The notes below the pieces were generated by a model. It saw only the letters and a list, made by a program, of their open reading frames with translations, ran no database searches and was not told the DNA's origin. The translations under genes and the position numbers were made by a program. A stretch of 61,321 nucleotides of DNA, counting the filler, from Squatina squatina (taxonomy: Eukaryota): NCBI GenBank assembly GCA_031763465.1. It is 4 parts of 3 records of this genome, joined end to end, with 100 filler letters (N's around TTAATTAATTAA, not from the genome) between each part and the next. Parts side by side here need not be neighbours in the genome. Positions count along the whole stretch, not along the records: positions 48,529 to 61,321 come from JARFOE010000004.1; 3 more parts are not named here. One strand, written 5' to 3'. Shown here piece after piece: positions 6,490-57,455 of the stretch; the first letter of the stretch is position 1; each line of letters starts with the position of its first letter.

Positions 6490-6673
6490 AAAGAAAATCT
6501 GCATTTAGAAATTGTCTTTCATGATGTCAGGACGTCCCAAAGCACTTTATAATTTATGAGGTAATTGTGAAGTGTAATCACTGTTAAGAACATAAGAAAT
6601 AGGAGCAGGAGCAGGCCGTTCGGTCCCTCGAGCCTGCTCCGCCATTCAATGAGATCATGGCTGATCTGATTCT
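6490..6673 (-). mobile_element. Deu SINE 3' end abutting a CR1 3' end
   Basis: Reverse complement of the SINE tail (6490-6585) and of the CR1 3'UTR gctcgagggaccgaacggcctgctcctgctcctatttcttatgttctt (6585-6673). Confidence 0.7.
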
Positions 6674-9512: not shown

Positions 9513-9831
9513 AAACCCTCCCGAGAACTCTGCATTCCTCCAATTCTGACCTCTTGTGCACCCCACACTTCCTTCGCCCCACCATTGGCAGCTATGCCTT
9601 CAGCCGTCTAGGCCCCAAGTGCTGGAATTCACTCCCTACACCTCTGCCCCTCTCCACCTCTCTCTTCTCCTTTAAGACGCTGCTTAAAACAAACCCCTTC
9701 GACCGAGCATTTGCTCACCTGTCCTAATGTCTCCTTCTTTGACTTGGTGTCAATTTTTGTATTATTACACTCCTGTGAAGTTCCTTGGGACATTTTATTA
9801 TGTTAAAGGTGCTATAGAAAGGCACGTTGTT
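9513..9831 (+). mobile_element. L2-like LINE 3' end
   Basis: Translates RTLHSSNSDLL...RPTIGSYAFSRLGPKCWNSLP...FKTLLKT, typical of an L2 ORF2 C-terminus; paralogous to 14890, 15515 and 32825. Confidence 0.8.
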
Positions 9832-12470: not shown

Positions 12471-12692
12471 TTGGAATTCTTTACCCCAGAGAGCTGTGGG
12501 GGCTGAGTCATTGAATATATTCAAGGCTGAGATAGACAGATTTTTGAGCAGCAAGGGAGTCAAAGGTAATGGTGAACAGGTAGGAAAGTGGAGTTGAGGC
12601 CAGAATCAGATCTGCCATGATCTCATTGAATGGCAGAGCAGGCTCGAGGGGCCGAATGGCCTACTCTGGTTCCTAGTTCTTATGTTCTTATG
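12471..12692 (+). mobile_element. CR1 LINE 3' end
   Basis: WNSLPQRAVGAESLNIFKAEIDRFL ORF2 terminus, then 3'UTR and ttcttatg tail repeats. Confidence 0.85.
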
Positions 12693-14482: not shown

Positions 14483-14889
14483 CTGTATACCTGTTCGCCC
14501 TTTCCCTTGGTCCCTGAGCCAACCTGAAACCTGCTTCTGTGTGCACTCAGAACACTCCACCTTCAATGGAAGTAGGTGTGTGGAGCTCACATACACCGCT
14601 CCCCGAAATATGTGTCTAATCAGCACTTGAGTTTCTGGTTAGCACCTGCAGGCACATAGAAACATAGAAAATAGGAGCAGGAGTAGGCCATTCGGCCCTT
14701 CGAGCCTGCTCTGCCATTCAATATGATCATNNNNNNNNNNNNNNNNNNNNNNNNNNNNNNNNNNNNNNNNNNNNNNNNNNNNNNNNNNNNNNNNNNNNNN
14801 NNNNNNNNNNNNNNNNNNNNNNNNNNNNNNCCATGGAATGTTCACTACCAAAAGTTTGCTTTGCATTTGCTACAAGAAAATAAGTTTGC

Positions 14890-15150
14890 GCTGCTCTAAT
14901 TCTGCCCTCCTTGAGAATCCCTGATTATAATCACTCAACCATTGGTGGCTGTGCCTTCTGTTGCCTAGGCCTTAAGCTCTGGAATTCCTTGCCTAAACAC
15001 TCCTCCTTCAAGACACTCCTTAAAACCTACCTCTGACCAACCTTTTGGTCATCTGTCCTCATTTCTCCTTATGCGGCTCGTTGTCTTTTTTAAATCTCAT
15101 AATACTCCTGTGAAGCACCTTGGGACACTTGACTATGTTAAAGGTGTTAC
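14890..15150 (+). mobile_element. L2-like LINE 3' end
   Basis: accattggtggctgtgccttc...aagctctggaattcc...cttaaaacctacctc motif shared with 9513 and 32825. Confidence 0.75.
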
Positions 15151-15514
15151 AAAACAGTTGGCACACAACTTTTAATGTGCATATTTGTCGTTCCTATTTT
15201 TAGTCAAGTGGAGGAAGGGAAAGAGTACATGAACAGATTCCGTCCACATGAGATGGTATGCAATGGCATCCTGTAATAAGTGATACTTGAATGTGCACTT
15301 TTATTGGTTATGTATGTCTTAATGATTGGATTTGATTCAGTGTGGTTGCTAACCAAATACTTGTTAATCATGCAGTTGGGCAACACTGGATGAAAGAGAA
15401 ACTGTTTCAAGTTTAAAAGTTCAACATGTAGTCAGTTAGAAAAATGTGTGTATATATAGAGTTCAGGAGATAAAGAAGAATACGTAGTTGGTAATGACTG
15501 TCAGAAGTAAAGCA

Positions 15515-16767: not shown

Positions 16768-17410
16768 CTGTAGGGGCAGAAAGAGTTAGTCACAGGGGCA
16801 GGGAACATGCAACGGTTTCATCAATAGTGCATTGAATTCTATATTCTCTGCAATTTCTCACACTTTTCCAACGCTTGGACCCAATTTGTGAGTGAGCTGC
16901 AATATTCTCTAGTTAAAAATTGGGAAGCACCAAAAACACCATTTTCAGCCCACACCACAATCACCCTACCCTTGTCTATGAATCCACGCTGTCTCCCTGA
17001 CCACTGCCTCAGATTGTTTGCAACCCTAATCCATGCCTTTGGTGGTTCCTAACTCAACAATTCTTATACAAAAGCAAAATACTGCGGATGCTGGAACCTA
17101 GAATATAAACAAAAAATGCTGGAAAAACTCAGCAGGCCTAACCTGCTGAGTTTTTCCAACATTTTTTGTTTATATTCAATAATTTTAATGCTTTCCTGGT
17201 GCATTATAGCACAAGNNNNNNNNNNNNNNNNNNNNNNNNNNNNNNNNNNNNNNNNNNNNNNNNNNNNNNNNNNNNNNNNNNNNNNNNNNNNNNNNNNNNN
17301 NNNNNNNNNNNNNNNAAAATCGGCCCTTCAAAAACTAACACAATGTTTCACTGGTCCCACCTTGAAATATGTGGAGGATGAAAGAATTTGGAGCAGTGGA
17401 AGTAGAAATG

Positions 17411-20035: not shown

Positions 20036-20135
20036 NNNNNNNNNNNNNNNNNNNNNNNNNNNNNNNNNNNNNNNNNNNNTTAATTAATTAANNNNNNNNN
20101 NNNNNNNNNNNNNNNNNNNNNNNNNNNNNNNNNNN
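20036..20135. other. Artificial scaffold linker
   Basis: 44 N, TTAATTAATTAA (20080-20091, stops in all six frames), 44 N. Confidence 0.95.
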
Positions 20136-32824: not shown

Positions 32825-33360
32825 GCATTTCCGCAAACCTGAGGTGGTCCAAAGCTCAGCTGCCCGTGTCTTAGCTCGCACCAAGTCCCGTTCACCCATC
32901 ACCCCTGTGCTCGCTGACCTACACTGGCTCCCGCTCAAGCAATGTCTCGATTTCAAAATACTCGTCCTTGTTTTCAACACCCTCCATAGCCTCGCNNNNN
33001 NNNNNTCCCCCATCTCTAATCTCCTCCAGCCCCACAAGCCCCACCCCAGCCCACCAAGATGCCTGCACTCCTCTAATTCTGGCCACTTGAGCAACCCTGA
33101 TTTTAATCACTCCACCATTGGTGGCCATGCCTTCAACTGCCTGGGCCCTAAACTCTGGAATGCCCTCCCTAAACCTCTCCGCCTCTCTATCCTCCTTTAA
33201 GACGCTCCTAAAATCTTAAAACCTACCTCTTTGACTAAGCTTTTGGTCATCTGCCCCAATACCTCCTTATGCGGCTTGGTGTCAAATTCTGTTTGATGAT
33301 TGCTCCTGCGAAGCAGCTCGGAACGTTTTGCTACATTAAAGGCGCTATAAGTTGTTGTTG
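32825..33360 (+). mobile_element. L2-like LINE 3' fragment
   Basis: VQSSAARVLARTKSRSPITPVLADLHWLPLKQCLDFKILVLVF...AFNCLGPKLWNALP, a canonical L2 ORF2 C-terminus. Confidence 0.9.
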
Positions 33361-34760: not shown

Positions 34761-34860
34761 NNNNNNNNNNNNNNNNNNNNNNNNNNNNNNNNNNNNNNNN
34801 NNNNTTAATTAATTAANNNNNNNNNNNNNNNNNNNNNNNNNNNNNNNNNNNNNNNNNNNN
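34761..34860. other. Artificial scaffold linker
   Basis: N44-TTAATTAATTAA (34805-34816)-N44. Confidence 0.95.
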
Positions 34861-38679: not shown

Positions 38680-40974
38680 TATCTGCCTACATTATGATGC
38701 CTGTGGTTATTGTATGACCCCTTCTGAAGAAAGGATGCGAGCAGCGACTCAGCGACCATTACTTTTCTGTTTAGAGATGGTCTGTATATGGTCGGCTAAC
38801 CCTTCAGAGGTCTCAGCGCACCTTCGCGACCATAGAGCCAAAATATGTATCGAACGTTCAATTATAAAGAGCGGTAGCACCACACCTGCAGCGGACATTC
38901 ATATCACGCAGTTTTGCCTTAGAAACAGAACTCAAATTCCATCCGGGAGGTTCTACTTGGTCCGACTCATCCTTGTTAAGGGGTTGCCCTGCTGTTTGAG
39001 CTCAGGAGATCTCGCTCCCCCATATTTTGAGACTCAGGTTTGATGTTGGGGTTAAAAAGGGCGAGCGGACGCCTAAGGTTGGGCGCCGGTATCACTGTTG
39101 CGGCGCCGTAATGGGGCTGACTGTTTTTTGATGATCAGCACAGGGAGGAAACCGCAGAACAGAGACCAAAGAATGTGATCACGGCTGTTGGATTTTCAAA
39201 GCCTGTAGCGCCACCTGACCTAAAATCCAGGCACTACAAGAGAAAGGATAAATAACGTTGAGTTAAATTTGAACGCAAGTGTTCTTCAGNNNNNNNNNNN
39301 NNNNNNNNNNNNNNNNNNNNNNNNNNNNNNNNNNNNNNNNNNNNNNNNNNNNNNNNNNNNNNNNNNNNNNNNNNNNNNNNNNNNNNNNNCAGCCATGATC
39401 ATATTGAATGGTGGGACAGGCTCGAGGGGCCGAATGGCCTACTCCTGCTCCTATTTTCTATGTTTATATGTTTCTCTTATGGATCACTGCTCTCAAGATC
39501 TGTCCTCTGTCAATGGCTGCCTGGGAAAGAAGCAATTATTTTATGTCTTTTTATTACCCATTTTGTTACATAAGCAATTACCTAAATAAATAGACAACAA
39601 GGTTGTTTTATAAAGGTCTAATTTGTTTTCTCGTAATCTGTTTTTAACTTCTGTTCTGCTGATATATGGCAGTCCTTGGAGCTCTATGTGCAAGGGATTT
39701 GCTTCAGATTAATTCTGTGATACTGTAGCTCTTGATGTCATAATTGTCTACTTTTAATGTGAGAATTAAGATAAAAACATTTCTATTTGTTTATTTATTA
39801 ATTAAGGAAAGCCAATGGTGGCGAGTTGAACACTTTTCCACATTGGGCAGTGATTCAGCATTTTCAAGTCAGTTATCGTAAGTCTGGACACAGAGTAAAG
39901 CTGTCACTTATGTGAGCTAATAATATTCCAAATTCAGAAGATAACCAGTTTGAATTTTTCTATTTCCACCACAAGCTCTCCTTTGGCCTCTCTCTGAGTA
40001 ATTAATTGTAACTTGTGCTGAATATTGGTCAGTTCTGTGTTGTTATCCTGCACCAATTAAAAATTAGTTTTAGACTGCCCAAAATTATTTCATAGAGGAC
40101 ACCTATAAATGGCAAACAAGAGGAGGCTTTCAACAAATCATTCTGAAACTAGCTGTCACAGGTGGAGAAAAAATGTACTCATTAATTTGCTACTTTGTCC
40201 TCTCATCTCCAGCTTTAAAATCGTTNNNNNNNNNNTAAAGGTAATTCTTATAAAAAAGGATTATACAGATGTACAAGATGATTTCAACCCTTAGCTGGTT
40301 CATAGTTTCATTACCAACCAAAATTTGTTCATTTGGTTGTTTGTGCGACAGCTGAAGATGGAAAGTATGAACCTGTGAATATACACATGTATGAACATAG
40401 CAAAAGAAGGGTAGGAAAAGACCATCATGCCTATCAAGCCCGACCATTCCAGGCATTGGGTAACTATACACACCATTGATGCCTCCTTAACAAGGAGGCA
40501 AAACAACAGAGAGAAAACTGTGGTTAATTGAGCAGCAAGACTACAAAATTCCTCTCTGACTCCCTAAGGCATTTAATGTTCCAGGAGACTGTGGTTCCCA
40601 TAAATCCTTACAAATACAACTAGCAATTTATTCTTTATAACTGAAAATTCCCTTTAAGAGGACAGGAGCGAATTCATATCCACCACATGTTCACATAGTC
40701 TGTTCTAGAGGATGATGACGCTGGGAAAACAAACCTCTAACTTAACAGTGCAGTATCTGGTTGTCCTACATTTGACCTAAGATTGCTGGTTGCTGACAAT
40801 GGGCGTAAAAGGCACTTTGAAAACATTTTTATTAAATGTTTTATAAAACTAGTTGACAAACAGTAAGATCAAGAAGGGGCAGTAAAGCTGCATAGTAACC
40901 CAAACAGGATGTTTGTATTCCTGTCATTTTTAATGAAAGAAGATATACCAATATAAAAAAACCCCACTGCTGGT

Positions 40975-46100: not shown

Positions 46101-46737
46101 GTGTACAGTTTTGGTCTCCTTATATACTTGCCATCGAGGGAGTGCAGTGAAGGTTCACCCGATTGATTCCTGGGATGGCAGGCTTATCATATGAGCAGAG
46201 ATTAGGTCGATTAGGACTGTATTCACTTGAGTTTAGAAGAATGAGAGGGGATCTCATTGAAACGCATAAAATTCTGACCGGGTTCGAAAGATTGGATGCA
46301 AGGAGCATGTTTCCCCTGGCTGGGGAGTCTCGAACCAGGGGTCACAGTTTCAGNNNNNNNNNNTAGGCCATTTTGGACTGAGATAAGGATAAATTTCTTC
46401 ACTCAGAGGGTGGTGAACCTGTAGAATTCTCTACCACAGAAGACTGTGGAGGCCAGGTCATTCAATATATTCAAGAAGGAAATAGATACATTTGCAGATA
46501 CTAAAGGCATCAAGGGACATGGGGAGAAAACGGGTATATGGCATCGAGATCAGCTATAATCATATTCAAAGCGGAGCAGGCTCGAAGGGCCGAATGACCT
46601 ACAGCTGTGCTTATTTTCTATGTTTCTATGTTTGCACTGTGCCTTTTCATATTGAATGACAGAGCAGGCTCGAAGGGCTGAATGGCCTACACCTGTGCTT
46701 ATTTTCTTTGTTTCTATGTTTGTACTGTGCCTTTTCT
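46101..46737 (+). mobile_element. CR1 LINE 3' fragment with a duplicated tail
   Basis: IPGMAGLSYEQRLGRLGLYSLEFRRMRGDLIETHKILTG; the 3'UTR and tail appear twice. Confidence 0.88.
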
Positions 46738-48428: not shown

Positions 48429-48528
48429 NNNNNNNNNNNNNNNNNNNNNNNNNNNNNNNNNNNNNNNNNNNNTTAATTAATTAANNNNNNNNNNNNNNNN
48501 NNNNNNNNNNNNNNNNNNNNNNNNNNNN
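48429..48528. other. Artificial scaffold linker
   Basis: N44-TTAATTAATTAA (48473-48484)-N44. Confidence 0.95.
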
Positions 48529-50686: not shown

Positions 50687-50854
50687 ATGAACCTTGCGGT
50701 GGGCTTCAAACCGATGCTCGGAGACGCACAGACAATGGACAGTTTGGAGAAACAACTTATTTGTCCCATTTGTCTGGAAATGTTCACAAAACCAGTAGTA
50801 ATTTTACCGTGCCAGCATAATTTGTGTAGAAAATGTGCCAATGATGTTTTCCAG
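50687..50854 (+). CDS. TRIM54: TRIM54 (MuRF3) exon 1, N-terminal half of the RING
   Basis: [56 protein letters not shown]|gtagg; the N-terminus resembles human TRIM54 [24 protein letters not shown]. Confidence 0.95.
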
Positions 50855-51411
50855 GTAGGTGTTTCAATTATTACCAATACTTGGCTGTTGTACAGTTAAT
50901 TTTAGTGTACTAATAATAGATTGGACATTAGAGTACCTGCTTTCTGTGTTTATAATTTTTGTTAAAATGTATGGGCTTTTTATGAAGCTGGAAAGTGCCC
51001 TTCAAACAAAATATTTTTGATGAGACTGTTTTAATGTTCTTTTTAAGCCTGTTTGTGTGTGAGGTTGCCTTGATGGCAGAACTGTGAGTTAAGGGATAAT
51101 GGAAGGGACAATGAGAAAGGAATAAATGTCAGATCACAAACGTTGGNNNNNNNNNNAGGGGGAGAAATCAAGATGAAGTCCAGCCCGTCCCTTTTTATAA
51201 AAAAAACACACACTTCTCACTGTCTGACCTATGGAAGATAGAAGATCATGGAAGAAAAAAATAGTAATGCAAAAGTGAAAAAACTACAAAAAGACAAAGC
51301 TTGAGAAAGAGACAAAGTAGAATGAGAGTAAGAGGTGGCCTAGCTGAATAATACTTTTAGGGCTGATTGACATTTTCATTTGATATATAATTCCCAGNNN
51401 NNNNNNNNNNN

Positions 51412-51565
51412 AGTCGAGAGGCACCACTACAGTGCCTTCAGGGGGTCGCTTTCGTTGTCCTTCCTGCCGACATGAGGTAGTGCTGGATCGCCATGGAGTA
51501 TACGGCCTGCAGAGAAATCTCCTGGTGGAAAATATCATTGACATCTACAAGCAAGAATCATCCAG
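51412..51565 (+). CDS. TRIM54: TRIM54 exon 2 (start masked by N)
   Basis: [50 protein letters not shown](R)|gt. Confidence 0.95.
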
Positions 51566-52506
51566 GTTACGCAATGTGCTTTATTTATAGAGACAGCTGG
51601 ACAGAAGGTCCATGTGCTTTAGTGAATGGTCTGCAACCATAGAAAATGTTTCATTATTCCGTAGTTGTTTTTTGTTTTTGCTATTTCCTTGTGTGTGCTG
51701 TACCACCCTTTTACGACCATTTGTTCCCACATTGTTCTTTCAGCTGAGGTAGGGAAAAAGTAATTTTTCCACCAGTACCATTTGGGCATTTAACTGATAG
51801 TAAATGTGAAGAGACAGCATCAAATCCCCTTGGGAATGGGGCAGAATGAAGTAAAATGCTCCACAATGGGAATCCAAATAAGAATGGGTAAAAATGGTCA
51901 CAATTTTTAAATCAAAAATCAGCAAAGTTGAAAAGAATTAGAGATGATGAGGTTAAGGCAGGCAATACTGATTAGGGGGCATCATGCTTGGGATTTAAAA
52001 CCTGAAAACTGTAGGAGGAAAGCTGGAAAATGTTGAGTTCTACAGTTTTGAGATTGTTGGGTGAACATAGAGTTATGGTTCTTTTACACTAAGCTGGGGT
52101 TTGGGAGCAATGTTCAAACAGACATCTATGACCTTGGTGGCCCACTGTTTCCTCTTCAACTTTTTCTTGAAGTTTACAGCATAGAAGGAGGCCATTTGGT
52201 CCATCATGTCTGAGCTGACTCTGTTAGAGCAATCCAAAACTAATCCTATTGCCTTGCTCTCTCTTAATAACCCTGTGTCTTCCTCTGCTCCAAATACATA
52301 TTCAGTTTCCCCTTAGAAGATGCAATGGCCTCTGCCCTCAACTATTCCCTGCAGCCAAGAATTCCAGGTTCCAACAACTTTTGGTGTTCCAAATCAATTC
52401 AGGCCANNNNNNNNNNNNNNNNNNNNNNNNNNNNNNNNNNNNNNNNNNNNNNNNNNNNNNNNNNNNNNNNNNNNNNNNNNNNNNNNNNNNNNNNNNNNNN
52501 NNNNNN

Positions 52507-52650
52507 TCTATCACTCGTGAACAGGAGGAGAAAGTGCAGTATGTGCGATCTCTGATGAGGCAACACGGAGATCACTTGGAGGGAGCCAGCAAGCTGGTCG
52601 AAACAGCTCTGCAATCCATGGAGGAACCACAGATGGCAGTGTTCCTGCAG
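52507..52650 (+). CDS. TRIM54: TRIM54 coiled-coil exon, 3' part
   Basis: [48 protein letters not shown]|gt. Confidence 0.93.
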
Positions 52651-52752
52651 GTCTGCATATCGCTTGCTTTTTGTGTTTCTTTTAGGATTGTTGTGGATTT
52701 TTCTGTCTTTATTTGCAATGCAGGTCATTTTATGTATTTCTTCTGTTCACAG

Positions 52753-52775
52753 AATACAAAGCAGCTGATTAAAAA
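52753..52775 (+). CDS. TRIM54: TRIM54 23-nt exon
   Basis: cacag|AATACAAAGCAGCTGATTAAAAA|gtaagt = NTKQLIK(K), equivalent to human QAKELINK. Confidence 0.85.
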
Positions 52776-54539
52776 GTAAGTCAATTTTAAGAGTATGCAA
52801 TTAAAAACACATCTTTGTTTGTGCTGTAATAGTTATCCAGTAAGGTTTACTTGAATAAAATCTCTGATCTTCATTAATGAGGCGCCTTAAATACCTTTCA
52901 ATTTCTGTCATTGCCTTCAATCTTCCCTCTTGCACTCTCTGACACACAAATTCTCTCTCTTCCTCTCACTTCACACACTTGCTGCACAGTGTCTCCCTCT
53001 CTATGTCTCGCACTCAGTCTCACACGCTCTCACTTCCATAGCTCCTCTTTCTGTTGAGAGTGAATGAATGAGTTGCAGATGTCTCAGTACCGTACTAATG
53101 ACAATAGGAAATTTGCTCCTGGTGGGAAACATGCATTGCCTCTCATAGATCAGGAGTGGGCATTGTTCCTCCAAGCAGGTTTTCTTCAAACAGTGGCAAT
53201 TGTCCTTGTATTCATCCATGGGGGACATATATTTATACTAGCTCTGTGACTTGATGGAATAAGCACCATTTGGTATGCCAGTGTAATCACATTTAGATAT
53301 GCATTTAGAATGCTTTCAATGCTGTAACCAGTTGCATCAGGAGAGGGAAGAAACAGCTCACAATCCTGAATGCGAATTTAAAATACCCTTCATAGGTTTT
53401 GTAATTAAAACTAAACCCAAATTACAATTTCAAACAAAATTTCTCCACACTCTCACATTTTCAGATGGAAGCTAATTTATGTGAATGATGTTAAAAGGGA
53501 AGCGTATTACTGGCAAAATACACACAGATAAAACAAAAACAAAGCTCCCCCCTTTTTAGACTATTACAATAAACATTGAGAACACACAAGACATAACCAC
53601 CATTTCCATACAGTCAGAATATGTATAAATTATTGGCAAAATATTAAGGTATTGCACACAAAGTTTGAGTTAACTATCTGCCCATCCCAGATCAGTGCTG
53701 CATTAATATTTCTGCTAGTTTACAAAACAAGGCATCATTTCATAACTGTAAAGAAATATTCAAAGATTGAGATTCATCTGCATGATCAGGGCACTAGGTG
53801 CTTTGCAAGATGTAAGGTAATCAGGTTAGAAGGTTAATTCCTCAAACATTTGTCCTACCTCAATAAAATACCTCCGTTTATCTGTCCAATGGTGTGTGAA
53901 NNNNNNNNNNNNNNNNNNNNNNNNNNNNNNNNNNNNNNNNNNNNNNNNNNNNNNNNNNNNNNNNNNNNNNNNNNNNNNNNNNNNNNNNNNNNNNNNNNNN
54001 AAAACTCTTTCAGTAGTGGTGTGTTCAAGATTAAACATATGAGCAAATACTATCTTAACCTCAAGACAATTTCTAATTTGTAATTTCCTCTAAATTCTAC
54101 CCCCAATCCTAAATTCTAGCATTAATTAAACTGTTAGCTACTCCGATCACCCAACTATTATAACATCTACATTTCAATGTATTAATTTATACAGGAATTT
54201 TAACAGCCAGGGTTGTTAGGCTGCATCTTTGGATTCTGTTTTCCATCAATACACAGCCTTTCCAGACTGAACAAAGTGTTGAGTCAAAATAATGCTTTTA
54301 AAGAATTTTTATGACAAAAATAATTTATTTCATACTGAACAGTTATTTCATGAATATTCTATTTATTTGGTAATTTTTGGAATAGAACATTTCTTTCAGT
54401 TTTACACGAGTTTTGTAAGACAGATTTGGTTAGTGCATTATTTAGTGACTTTGGGGATCCACATGATGAATCTCTGAAAGGTTAAACTAAGTTGATGACA
54501 GAATGAACTAATTACACTGCTATATTCGAGATACATATA

Positions 54540-55032
54540 TCACTTGCCAACTGCTTCCATAATTTCACGATTTTTCTCTGCCTGCATCCATTGATCCTCA
54601 GTCTTGGCAAACTTCATCATTTCCCTCATGATGTGAAATGTGAGATCCAAGGAAATGGGTGGGTCAGCGGGTCTCTTTGAGAGAGCTGCAAAGGCCCCTA
54701 CCATATCTTGGCCAACTTCTTGGGAGGTCATGGGGTTTTCTGCATTGAGGGAAAGTTTACGCAGGAGAGGGCTGGATTCTTTAACAAAGATCTCTTTCAT
54801 ATTCTGGAGGTAGCCGAGAGTGAATCATCATGTACTTGGGATTTTGCCCCAAAGACCGGAGTTACCTTTCCCGCAGAATGTAGAAAAGAGATTGGTCAAC
54901 GTCATCAGTAGTTGTGTTGACATTGGAACCCCGTCTGTCAAAGATACTTAGATCCACAGCACGACACACAGCAGGAGGGATGCGAGTGACAAGTAGTAAG
55001 GCCGCAAGGAAAATCAAAGGAGTTGGCATCAT
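54540..55032 (-). pseudogene. UCN: Urotensin-I / urocortin-1 precursor with disrupted reading frame; mature 41-aa peptide intact at 54549-54671
   Basis: Acceptor ttttcag| at 55046, signal peptide MMPTPLIFLAALLLVTRIPPAVC, TAA at 54862-54864, then a +1 frame change before KR|PADPPISLDLTFHIMREMMKFAKTEDQWMQAEKNREIMEAV|GK*. Convergent with TRIM54, as human UCN is. Family identity is very secure; pseudogene status is less so. Confidence 0.75.
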
Positions 55033-55149
55033 GCTGGATAGAAATCTGAAAATGAAGACATGAGAATCTGAGTTATAATAGAACTTGATATGGTAATAAT
55101 AAATTATGTATGGCAGCACCTAGTTTCAGAGACCAAATAACAAGACAGC

Positions 55150-55508
55150 GAGGACTAGGAATTGCATAACGCCCTGCTTGGGGCGATAACTTTTGCAAGA
55201 GCGCAAAAGTATCGCCAGGCGAAAAAGATTTTCAGCTGACAAGAACTTCTGCTTTGCCGCTCCAAGAGGGAAGTGGAGTGTTAAATCAAGCGCTATCACT
55301 TCCCTTAGAGTGCTAAAGGGAGTGAGGGAGCGGTATCGGTGGAGCGCTGCACCTGATGGGGACCCTCCTTCGTTAACATGCTCTATGACGCTGAGTACCG
55401 GTGGGCAGCGGAACGGCCCGGGGATCCCAGAGGTGCAACGAGTGCGGAAGCGTACCTGGGATCACGTGGGCGTGGTGCTCCAATCAGTACACTGAAGGGA
55501 AAGTGTCC
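55150..55508. mobile_element. GC-rich non-autonomous DNA transposon-like insertion
   Basis: Abrupt GC/CpG-rich block with an internal inverted repeat (ggcgataacttttgc...gcaaaagtatcgcc); the other end lies in a gap. Confidence 0.45.
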
Positions 55509-57347
55509 NNNNNNNNNNNNNNNNNNNNNNNNNNNNNNNNNNNNNNNNNNNNNNNNNNNNNNNNNNNNNNNNNNNNNNNNNNNNNNNNNNNNNNNNNNNN
55601 NNNNNNNNCGTGAAGTTTCTCAGATGGAAGTTCTATCCTGTCATTGACTATCTTCAATACAAAAACATAGCCCACAAATTCTACTTTTCAGTCCTCAGTA
55701 GTTTCTTTCTGTGATTTATAGGTTATATATCCAGTATTATCAGTAGTTCTCTGATGAGGGTATGGGGTAAGAGTTTGTCAAATAGCAACTGATGCTTTAA
55801 GTTTCATGACAGTTATACACAACTGTAACTTCTACAACATGAAAAATAACAAATATCTCCAGAAGCTTCAGGGTATCTGCTTTTATGAAGATACTGGGAG
55901 TTAAATTTGAATCAAAACACAAGCCAAGCTGAAAGTGTGTGATCATAAAAGGCAGCTTTTCAGATATGCTTCCTATAATGTTGCAAGAACAGTCTTCACT
56001 GACAATCAATCCCAACAGAATAGTCCCATATCTGTACTGAATGAGTTATGCCCACAGGAACCAAAGTATCAAATTACGTTATCAGCTCAAGGATGAAGTC
56101 CTTTATAGACTGCCAGATAATCTCCGGGTTGGGATATTTATCTACCTCCTATGCTGACCGTAGACCTTGCAGGCTAACTGAGACAATTAATCACCCTTAC
56201 TGAGGAATCCAGTGTTTCTCTCTGAAATCAATATTGAAGCTGTCAAATTTCCATCTAAAGTAGTCTGTCCTTTCCTGGAGAAATAAACCAATATAAAGCT
56301 TTTTTCCCCCCTCTCGCTTTAAAACTGTAATCATTAGATCAGACCCAAAGGTGCTTGAATCCTTGAACTGTTTCAGTAATTAAATAGCAGAATCTACTCA
56401 AAGTCAGCAAAGAGCTACACTTATTTGCCTCATCAATAAATGTTGCTGCATGAACATTAAGCATTGCTCACTATGACTGTCACAATTGCCTGGTAATTTT
56501 CCAATTCTAGTATGTCAAAGTAATGTTTCGGGGATTTATGGGGAACAAATTCTCTGATGNNNNNNNNNNNNNNNNNNNNNNNNNNNNNNNNNNNNNNNNN
56601 NNNNNNNNNNNNNNNNNNNNNNNNNNNNNNNNNNNNNNNNNNNNNNNNNNNNNNNNNNNCCGAGCCCCTCCCCTGCCACAATGAGCAAACAGGTAGGCTA
56701 ATAGAGACCTGGCGATACTGGGGAAACCAGCATTAACTATATTCCTTGCTGTGAACCCAAGTCTGAAGTGTTGGGAGAAAGCCTGCACACTAAATTGTAG
56801 GCTTATTTCTTCTGTAAATTGTACAATTCAAAACATATCTTCAATATATCAGATCAAGGAATTTCTTTTCAACTGGGAAGACAAATCTGTTGTTAAATGA
56901 AGTTTGAGTGACAACCTTGCAGCCATTCTGGTGGCTTGCTTGCTTTTCACATTTCCCTTACATGCCAACCAACTTGGTTCAGTGAACAATCAGTATCTGG
57001 CAAGAGTCTGCATTTGTCTCATGCATTCAATATTTCAAAGCCATGAATCGACTTCTGATGCAACTGACCACCACCATTAAGGACATCTCTAGATGGTTTT
57101 TTGTACACTGACTTTCTCTCCATAAAACATCTCAACCAACTACAAAAAATAATTTTACCATAGTCATATAAAAAGATAGACACAAATGTTATCTTTAAAA
57201 GCATGACAGAGCCCCCTTTCCTCACAATGAGGTCTTTCTTATATTCACCATTTACCAGAGATTGTAATTCAAATCTGCAAAGGTGTAGTGGAGTGCTTAA
57301 AAAAAAACAGCAATCTGTAACCCCCGTTTAAACAACTGATTACTCAC

Positions 57348-57455
57348 CAGAAGAACTCGGACTGCCATCATAGCAGCAGCTCCTGTTGACACTGTACTGT
57401 CCATCAGAACAACATAATCCTCACTGATATCCTTCGGTAATCGAAGATAATGTAG
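57348..57455 (-). CDS. UCKL1: Uridine-cytidine kinase-like 1 family exon (UPRT-like domain)
   Basis: Bounded by tgtatag| and |gtgagt. Translates [36 protein letters not shown] (human [36 protein letters not shown]); may be a paralogue. Confidence 0.9.

Follow-up and report, generated by a model that had tools for sequence, protein, structure and literature searches.

The stretch of Squatina squatina DNA analyzed here (61,321 nucleotides, filler included, from assembly GCA_031763465.1, referred to below as the window) carries a broken coding exon of a urotensin I/urocortin 1 (UCN1) precursor, and the best explanation, with a probability of roughly 0.55, is that this is a real unitary pseudogene at the orthologous UCN1 locus of a squalomorph shark. 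A stop at codon 57 and a deficit of 11 nt each cut the signal peptide off from the mature hormone. However, it should be noted that the signal peptide, splice acceptor, Lys-Arg site, and Gly-Lys signal are all kept, which argues against this reading, and that gaps in the assembly could hide another copy.

The coding span lies on the minus strand and extends from an ATG at 55032-55030 to the last TGA at 54542-54540 (exon 54540..55032), a distance of 493 nt (3n + 1) as compared with the 510 nt usual in orthologues. It is contained in a contig of 1508 nt (54001-55508) with a 100-N gap on either side. The signal-peptide region, assigned by homology from the alignment, occupies 54964..55032 and is one codon, in a Cys column, shorter than in orthologues. 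At the C terminus, a 41-residue mature CRF-family peptide (54549..54671), out of frame with the ATG, is flanked in translation by a dibasic Lys-Arg cleavage site (54672..54677) and by a Gly-Lys amidation signal with the stop (54540..54548). An intact splice acceptor (55046..55075; 13 of 16 pyrimidines, CAG) is located 13 nt before the ATG, a distance that appears to equal the one implied by P0101, a public model in which MPV17 reads through into UCN1; retention of this upstream-intron acceptor rules out a retrocopy (processed pseudogene). A putative donor of a noncoding exon 1 (55450..55458, two mismatches), the best donor-like site in 55046-55508, would produce an intron of 410 nt, and two AATAAA hexamers within 54324..54367, about 175 and 210 nt past the stop, are possible polyadenylation signals. 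The minus-strand region 55046-55508 has a GC content of 50% and a CpG observed/expected ratio of 0.79, contains a donor-like site at 55455, a reverse CCAAT at 55484, an E-box at 55468, and a half CRE at 55390, and may represent exon 1 with a regulatory region; the CpG ratio ranks 11th of 200 windows and is not distinctive.

The assignment of the gene as a UCN1/urotensin I orthologue, as in the original prediction, is supported by named orthologues and by synteny with TRIM54. The downstream piece of the gene matches the Pfam CRF family (E = 1.2e-13) and solved CRH and urocortin peptides in the PDB. A first homologue search with the 92-residue downstream piece as query gave no candidates, a limit of sensitivity, as later searches did return relatives: a representative protein library yielded 97 matches with 2 well in front, and re-use of the best match as query gave 13 of 89 candidates, every one from a cartilaginous fish and most of them named urotensin 1 or UI-like, the others being named hypothetical or Mpv17 isoform. 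With X placed at both breaks, the window protein is 55-75% identical to these 13 named precursors over 149-162 columns, the cryptic region included. The closest are those of Pristiophorus japonicus (P0001, 75%) and Heptranchias perlo (P0098, 74%), over 162 columns each, both members of the Squalomorphii, and the others range from 55 to 72%. The window gene resembles UCN1 of these two sharks in its signal peptide, cryptic region, Lys-Arg site, 41-residue peptide, Gly-Lys signal, and TRIM54 neighbor but differs in having the stop, the 11-nt frameshift, two one-codon deletions, and changes from the majority at 12 of 41 mature positions.

UCN1 and TRIM54 are arranged tail to tail, with TRIM54 exon pieces on the plus strand at 50687-50854, 51414-51566, 52507-52650, and 52753-52775 (50687..52775 overall), all without stops or frameshifts. 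Exon 1 is 100% identical over 56 residues to TRIM54 of Heptranchias and Hemitrygon, and tblastn recovered 155 of 362 residues; missing are the B-box and last exons, which presumably fall inside gaps. TRIM54 is on a different contig, so that its adjacency to UCN1 rests on scaffolding. Identical 12-base islands, TTAATTAATTAA, each with 44 N on both sides, occur at 20080-20091, 34805-34816, and 48473-48484; they resemble what we take to be artificial six-frame-stop linkers from scaffolding software and suggest joining by software. Because no contig joins UCN1 to TRIM54 and such linkers are present, the synteny may be imposed by a reference. Upstream of UCN1 is an intact minus-strand exon with a UPRTase domain (57348..57455; Pfam E = 9.1e-09, splice sites present), named UCKL1-like on the assumption that it has the domain layout of that protein; it is the single exon recovered and is perhaps a retained paralogue of the UCKL1 found beside CRH2.

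The presence of this exon raises the question of whether the gene is instead CRH2, a paralogue known for repeated loss, in which case the loss would be ordinary. This was considered since uckl1 serves to mark the crh2 region in one survey (PMC9353778), but it is exceedingly improbable. In the same source, as far as it was available, the TRIM marker of crh2 is TRIM101, whereas the downstream neighbor here is TRIM54, and its Table S1 lists chondrichthyan crh2 spans of 435-465 nt, as compared with 504-510 nt here; a zebrafish candidate interval names uckl1, mpv17, uts1, and trim54 together (PMC3711038), so uckl1 also accompanies mpv17 and uts1; and the matches are all named urotensin 1, UI-like, or hypothetical or are MPV17 read-through models. 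The CRH2 identity was rejected from the TRIM54 neighbor, the names of the matches, and the length of the span, the trees described below being constructed from UCN1 rows only. No MPV17 exon was found in the window, and two unsized gaps (55509-56659) lie at the expected place, between UCN1 and the UCKL1-like exon. Two public models, P0101 (Chiloscyllium) and P0106 (Stegostoma, named Mpv17), fuse UCN1 with MPV17, and a third, P0110 (Coryphaenoides), fuses a TRIM gene with a CRF-family peptide; these are read-through or annotation fusions of neighbors.

Elsewhere in the window, comparison of 20 of the longer frames in positions 1-50,000 with Pfam gave no convincing family and no protein-coding gene was identified there; there were no Rfam matches, and a search for DNAJC5-type motifs found none. 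Two dispersed repeat families, SINE- or LINE-end-like and unclassified, have units of about 80 nt (6585-6673, 12602-12692, 14654-14730, 39390-39473, and 46551-46736) and about 290 nt (9530-9816, 14887-15152, and 33063-33350). An 88-nt tandem in two copies is present at 46560-46736 and a 77-nt near-palindrome, 91% self-complementary, at 17101-17177.

Relative to the usual precursor of 169 residues (8 of the 13 named precursors, counted from the aligned start), the window gene has four lesions: two in-frame deletions of 3 nt, the TAA at codon 57, and the 11-nt deficit. The lengths balance exactly (510 − 3 − 3 − 11 = 493). The original prediction had recognized the two disabling lesions, and both are present, but it missed the in-frame deletions, which remove one codon in the signal peptide (site 54997..55002) and one near codons 44-45 (site 54895..54906, codons 43-46) and appear as gaps in the window row only. 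It also passed over the taxon, the precedent for duplicates in catsharks, and the splice donor that overlaps the stop. The stop (54862..54864, read as 54864-54862) falls within FYILRER*LRSLGQN in a column that contains Leu in 11 of the 13 named precursors, Val in one, and a position beside a deletion in one. TTA is the sole Leu codon one base away from TAA, and because the column is mostly Leu, the origin of the stop by TTA to TAA, as originally proposed, is a sound inference. Direct translation also confirms the length of 3n + 1 and the TGA TGA at 54825..54830 (54830-54825) that shuts the mature-peptide frame upstream. Similarly, the claim that no single substitution or one-base indel mends the frame is borne out: between the ATG and the last TGA, none of 1479 substitutions, no 1-nt deletion, no 2-nt insertion, and indeed no indel of 1-2 nt opens it.

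The nature of the frameshift is indicated by two tblastn pieces that overlap at 54812-54799, bases that the upstream frame translates as L-P-P and the downstream frame as Y-L-Q. Among 610 open-frame models, the best was that with a second copy of the 11-nt unit at 54803..54813, CTACCTCCAGA (554.7; a model with 11 unknown bases scored 539.7, and the best model of any other length 544.3); it restores L-P-P-D-Y-L-Q, the residues present in P0099, P0100, and P0102. Frameshift sizes from 2 to 23 nt, whether tandem or of unknown bases, all scored below the 11-nt tandem unit. The deficit is thus best explained if an 11-nt tandem repeat has lost one of its units, and the protein comparison points to an ancestral perfect tandem pair of which one copy would remain; a missing tandem unit is what replication slippage typically leaves behind. 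Since the frameshift reflects 11 missing nt near 54813-54803 and not a single base, the unbroken frame would count 167 codons rather than the approximately 163 originally proposed. The view that the remaining parts are intact holds for the acceptor and for the frame and processing sites of the mature peptide, but the signal peptide is one residue short and the mature peptide, although whole in frame, departs from the residue found in most sharks at 12 of its 41 positions.

It should be recognized that the assembly is fragmentary, with 50 contigs and a median of 1012 nt, and the lesions could therefore reflect a base error together with collapse of the 11-nt tandem, possibly from one aberrant fragment in thin coverage. 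Some 50-60 nt, less than the length of a read, separate the two disabling lesions, a spacing that would suit such an origin but that says little, as two independent lesions have a 24% chance of lying within 62 nt of each other. Merging software can collapse a tandem unit; an 11-nt unit is, on the other hand, below the usual assembly k-mer length and would probably be unambiguous in a graph. The lesions lie 644-863 nt away from the contig ends, and about 594 nt of neighboring exons contain none, a weak control, with p = 0.042 for all four lesions and a nonsignificant p = 0.21 for the two disabling ones. The two 3-nt deletions and the drift of the peptide also favor true decay, and an artefact appears unlikely. 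Judged from the sequence, the lesions look like mutations: their lengths add up, the tandem-unit model accounts for the frameshift, they are in mid-contig, two are 3-nt deletions, and the neighbors are clean. A separate possibility is that the assembly represents one broken haplotype and that intact alleles persist in the species; the sequence is a single haploid consensus with no ambiguity letters, and the remainder of the gene is well preserved. However, two disabling lesions on one haplotype would imply an old, unconstrained allele, and if they were on two haplotypes both would be null, so that a segregating null is improbable.

It is also conceivable that the window gene is a tandem or segmental duplicate that has decayed and that an intact UCN1 is present in a scaffold gap or elsewhere. 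Duplication does occur in this family: catsharks have two copies (P0102, P0109, and P0108), Table S1 of PMC9353778 lists ucn1-1 and ucn1-2, and the mature peptide of the catshark second copy changes rapidly (22 of 41 positions). Gaps beside the contig and the absence of MPV17 from the window leave room for another copy. Against this, tblastn, blastn, and a profile search of 2997 frames revealed no second UCN1 copy in the window, where gaps flank the contig; the sawshark search returned one protein, with a cluster size of 1, and this lone protein is equally fast in the peptide, which suggests that a single gene was already relaxed; and the catshark duplication is lineage-specific (94/96), with the window gene outside that group. 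An ancient duplicate common to the divergent catshark copies was rejected by the AU test of that grouping (p-AU 6e-05). Among the 13 matches, no protein is named from Squaliformes, Squatiniformes, or Echinorhiniformes, an absence of little weight, as other squalomorph sequences might be contained in the 90% and 50% clusters. The second copies of Scyliorhinus (P0108 and P0109) resemble the window gene in being derived from UCN1 and in having a fast-changing mature peptide but differ in that they have an open frame, a conserved copy alongside, and a clade of their own. Among the catshark sequences (P0108, P0109, and P0102), the second copy combines a near-identical pro-region with a strongly diverged mature peptide (22 of 41 positions), and it is a candidate for a new function. 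A dead duplicate is considered rather unlikely, and the original ordering of lineage loss ahead of a dead duplicate and of assembly error in last place agrees with the present evidence.

In trees that contain UCN1 rows only, the window gene falls outside the galeomorph clade (99/98) and groups with Pristiophorus with moderate, unstarred support (89/92 with named rows only and 86/86 with one unnamed row added), a placement that makes a squalomorph shark the probable source. Differences in the window gene are as frequent in the mature peptide as in the cryptic region (12/41 versus 29/94, p = 1). The mature peptide is conserved in Heptranchias (1/41 versus 25/100), Heterodontus (0/41 versus 11/100), and Cetorhinus (0/41 versus 18/100), but it changes rapidly in the intact genes of Pristiophorus (12/41 versus 27/100), Pristis (11/40 versus 34/98), and S. 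torazame (6/41 versus 16/100), and fast change is therefore not specific to the dead gene. The intact sawshark and batoid sequences with fast mature peptides (Pristiophorus P0001, Pristis P0107, and P0002) have several residues in common with the window gene, and two batoid-type rows contain an in-frame two-residue deletion near the site of its frameshift.

There are 21 lineage-specific replacements in the window gene and 18 in Pristiophorus, and neither set departs from the neutral spectrum; those in the window gene show no excess of conservative changes over the neutral expectation (P = 0.26 and 0.29). The original prediction of a recent loss does not follow from these data: the window gene and the intact sawshark gene have equal end branches (0.16 and 0.15, respectively), replacements are neutral-like in both, and because about 0.7 stops would be expected on a wholly neutral end branch (if missense changes are assumed to make up a share of 0.70), a single stop is compatible with loss either early or late. 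The two in-frame deletions suggest continued selection on the frame along part of the branch, and the drift of the sawshark peptide suggests that a relaxation throughout the clade culminated in the loss.

The unitary pseudogene can be accommodated in a sequence of events in which the constraint on the hormone would have slackened first, in a lineage common to the sawsharks, so that the mature peptide drifted at the pace of the pro-region; two deletions of one codon each would have been fixed during a period when an open frame was still of consequence. A T to A change would then have created the stop, and replication slippage would have deleted one copy of the 11-nt tandem. A transcript with a stop in its last exon probably escapes junction-dependent decay, and any transcript that this gene still makes would probably do so because the coding region falls within the last exon; it would give the signal peptide and about 33 residues but not the hormone. 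As remedies, stop read-through and A-to-I editing were rejected, since the frameshift would remain, and so was reinitiation at internal ATGs, of which the hormone frame contains 8 (the first at 54800), the products of which would have no signal peptide and would stay outside the secretory pathway.

A different outcome would result if the lesions had created an intron. The stop belongs to AAG|GTAACT (54860..54868), which among all sites in the coding region most resembles a donor; it has one mismatch and equals or beats five of five real donors nearby, and a Lys to Arg change specific to the window just before the donor would, judging from the protein alignment, improve it. Use of the donor at 54865 with the AG at 54772 as its acceptor would excise 94 nt in frame together with both lesions and give a precursor of 132 residues, in which only cryptic region is lost and the signal peptide, Lys-Arg site, and hormone are kept. 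The strongest acceptor, however, is at 54804, the end of the remaining 11-nt copy (12 of 16 pyrimidines, 29 AG-free nt), and its use would remove 62 nt, out of frame, and lead to an immediate stop. Out-of-frame AGs account for four of the five examined, and the in-frame AG has 2 of 8 pyrimidines adjacent, a purine-rich tract, and a rival AG 5 nt upstream. It should be noted that splice-site strength was assessed by simple counts and not by a trained splice model, that an equally good donor is present in 8.9% of resampled sequences, and that the 54865-54772 pair is one of 27 GT/GC-AG solutions that restore the frame, most of them with poor donors. In addition, the would-be intron is, by eye, no more diverged than its flanks, and the mature peptide is without extra constraint. 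Precedents exist in intronization and in the MAP3K1 case of nonsense-associated altered splicing (PMC2586383, PMC7567082), which, as described there, resemble the present case in a nonsense change at an exonic donor and in an in-frame excision, here on paper; the window differs in having a weak in-frame acceptor behind a stronger out-of-frame one, and the event is predicted from sequence only. Because the strong acceptor is out of frame, rescue is considered very unlikely. The accompanying scenario, in which two neighboring substitutions, one of them the stop, built the donor, loss of the 11 nt eliminated one out-of-frame acceptor from a competing pair, and the hormone is still released, is equally doubtful.

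Returning to the pseudogene, its loss would be tolerated if, as in chicken and mouse, the same two receptors respond to both CRH1 and CRH2. Chicken CRH and CRH2 are each reported to activate both receptors (PMC6727040), and basal and stress glucocorticoids are described as normal in three UCN1 knockout mouse lines (PMC5930453), making tolerance of UCN1 loss plausible by analogy. Pseudogenes and losses in the CRH family include crh1 of the Australian lungfish, crh1a of the anchovy, crh2 of the arowana, and repeated losses of crh2 (PMC9353778). In these cases, as in the window gene, one member of the crh1/crh2/ucn1 triplet is frameshifted or missing, and compensation by paralogues has been proposed, but the member hit here is ucn1. 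In the parts of that survey of 70 vertebrates that were available, no ucn1 pseudogene is flagged and ucn1 is listed in seven of seven chondrichthyans; its table has three teleosts with no ucn1 row, whereas the text claims ucn1 in all teleost genomes investigated (PMC9353778). The accessible portion of PMC7406891 adds no ucn1 loss. No report of UCN1 loss in a shark was found in the literature searched, subscription endocrinology journals being outside its scope. The seven chondrichthyans surveyed presumably include no squalomorph. The window gene is thus a case of decay in the CRH family that hits a member for which no reported loss was found, and urotensin I appears to be kept by other jawed vertebrates.

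Urotensin I is a main product of the caudal neurosecretory system of fish, the function of which has been described as still uncertain (PMC11923583). The value of the present case is limited by its reliance on one draft assembly and because mice with UCN1 knocked out have a mild phenotype, and the claim of a natural loss holds if both lesions are real and the genome is without a second copy. Should the intron rescue prove true, it would be a natural vertebrate example of stop-associated intronization saving a neuropeptide gene. If the loss is true, the clade-wide relaxation would be datable from other squalomorph genomes, and this shark lineage would constitute a natural knockout for the hormone and the caudal neurosecretory organ, and for takeover by CRH1 and CRH2.
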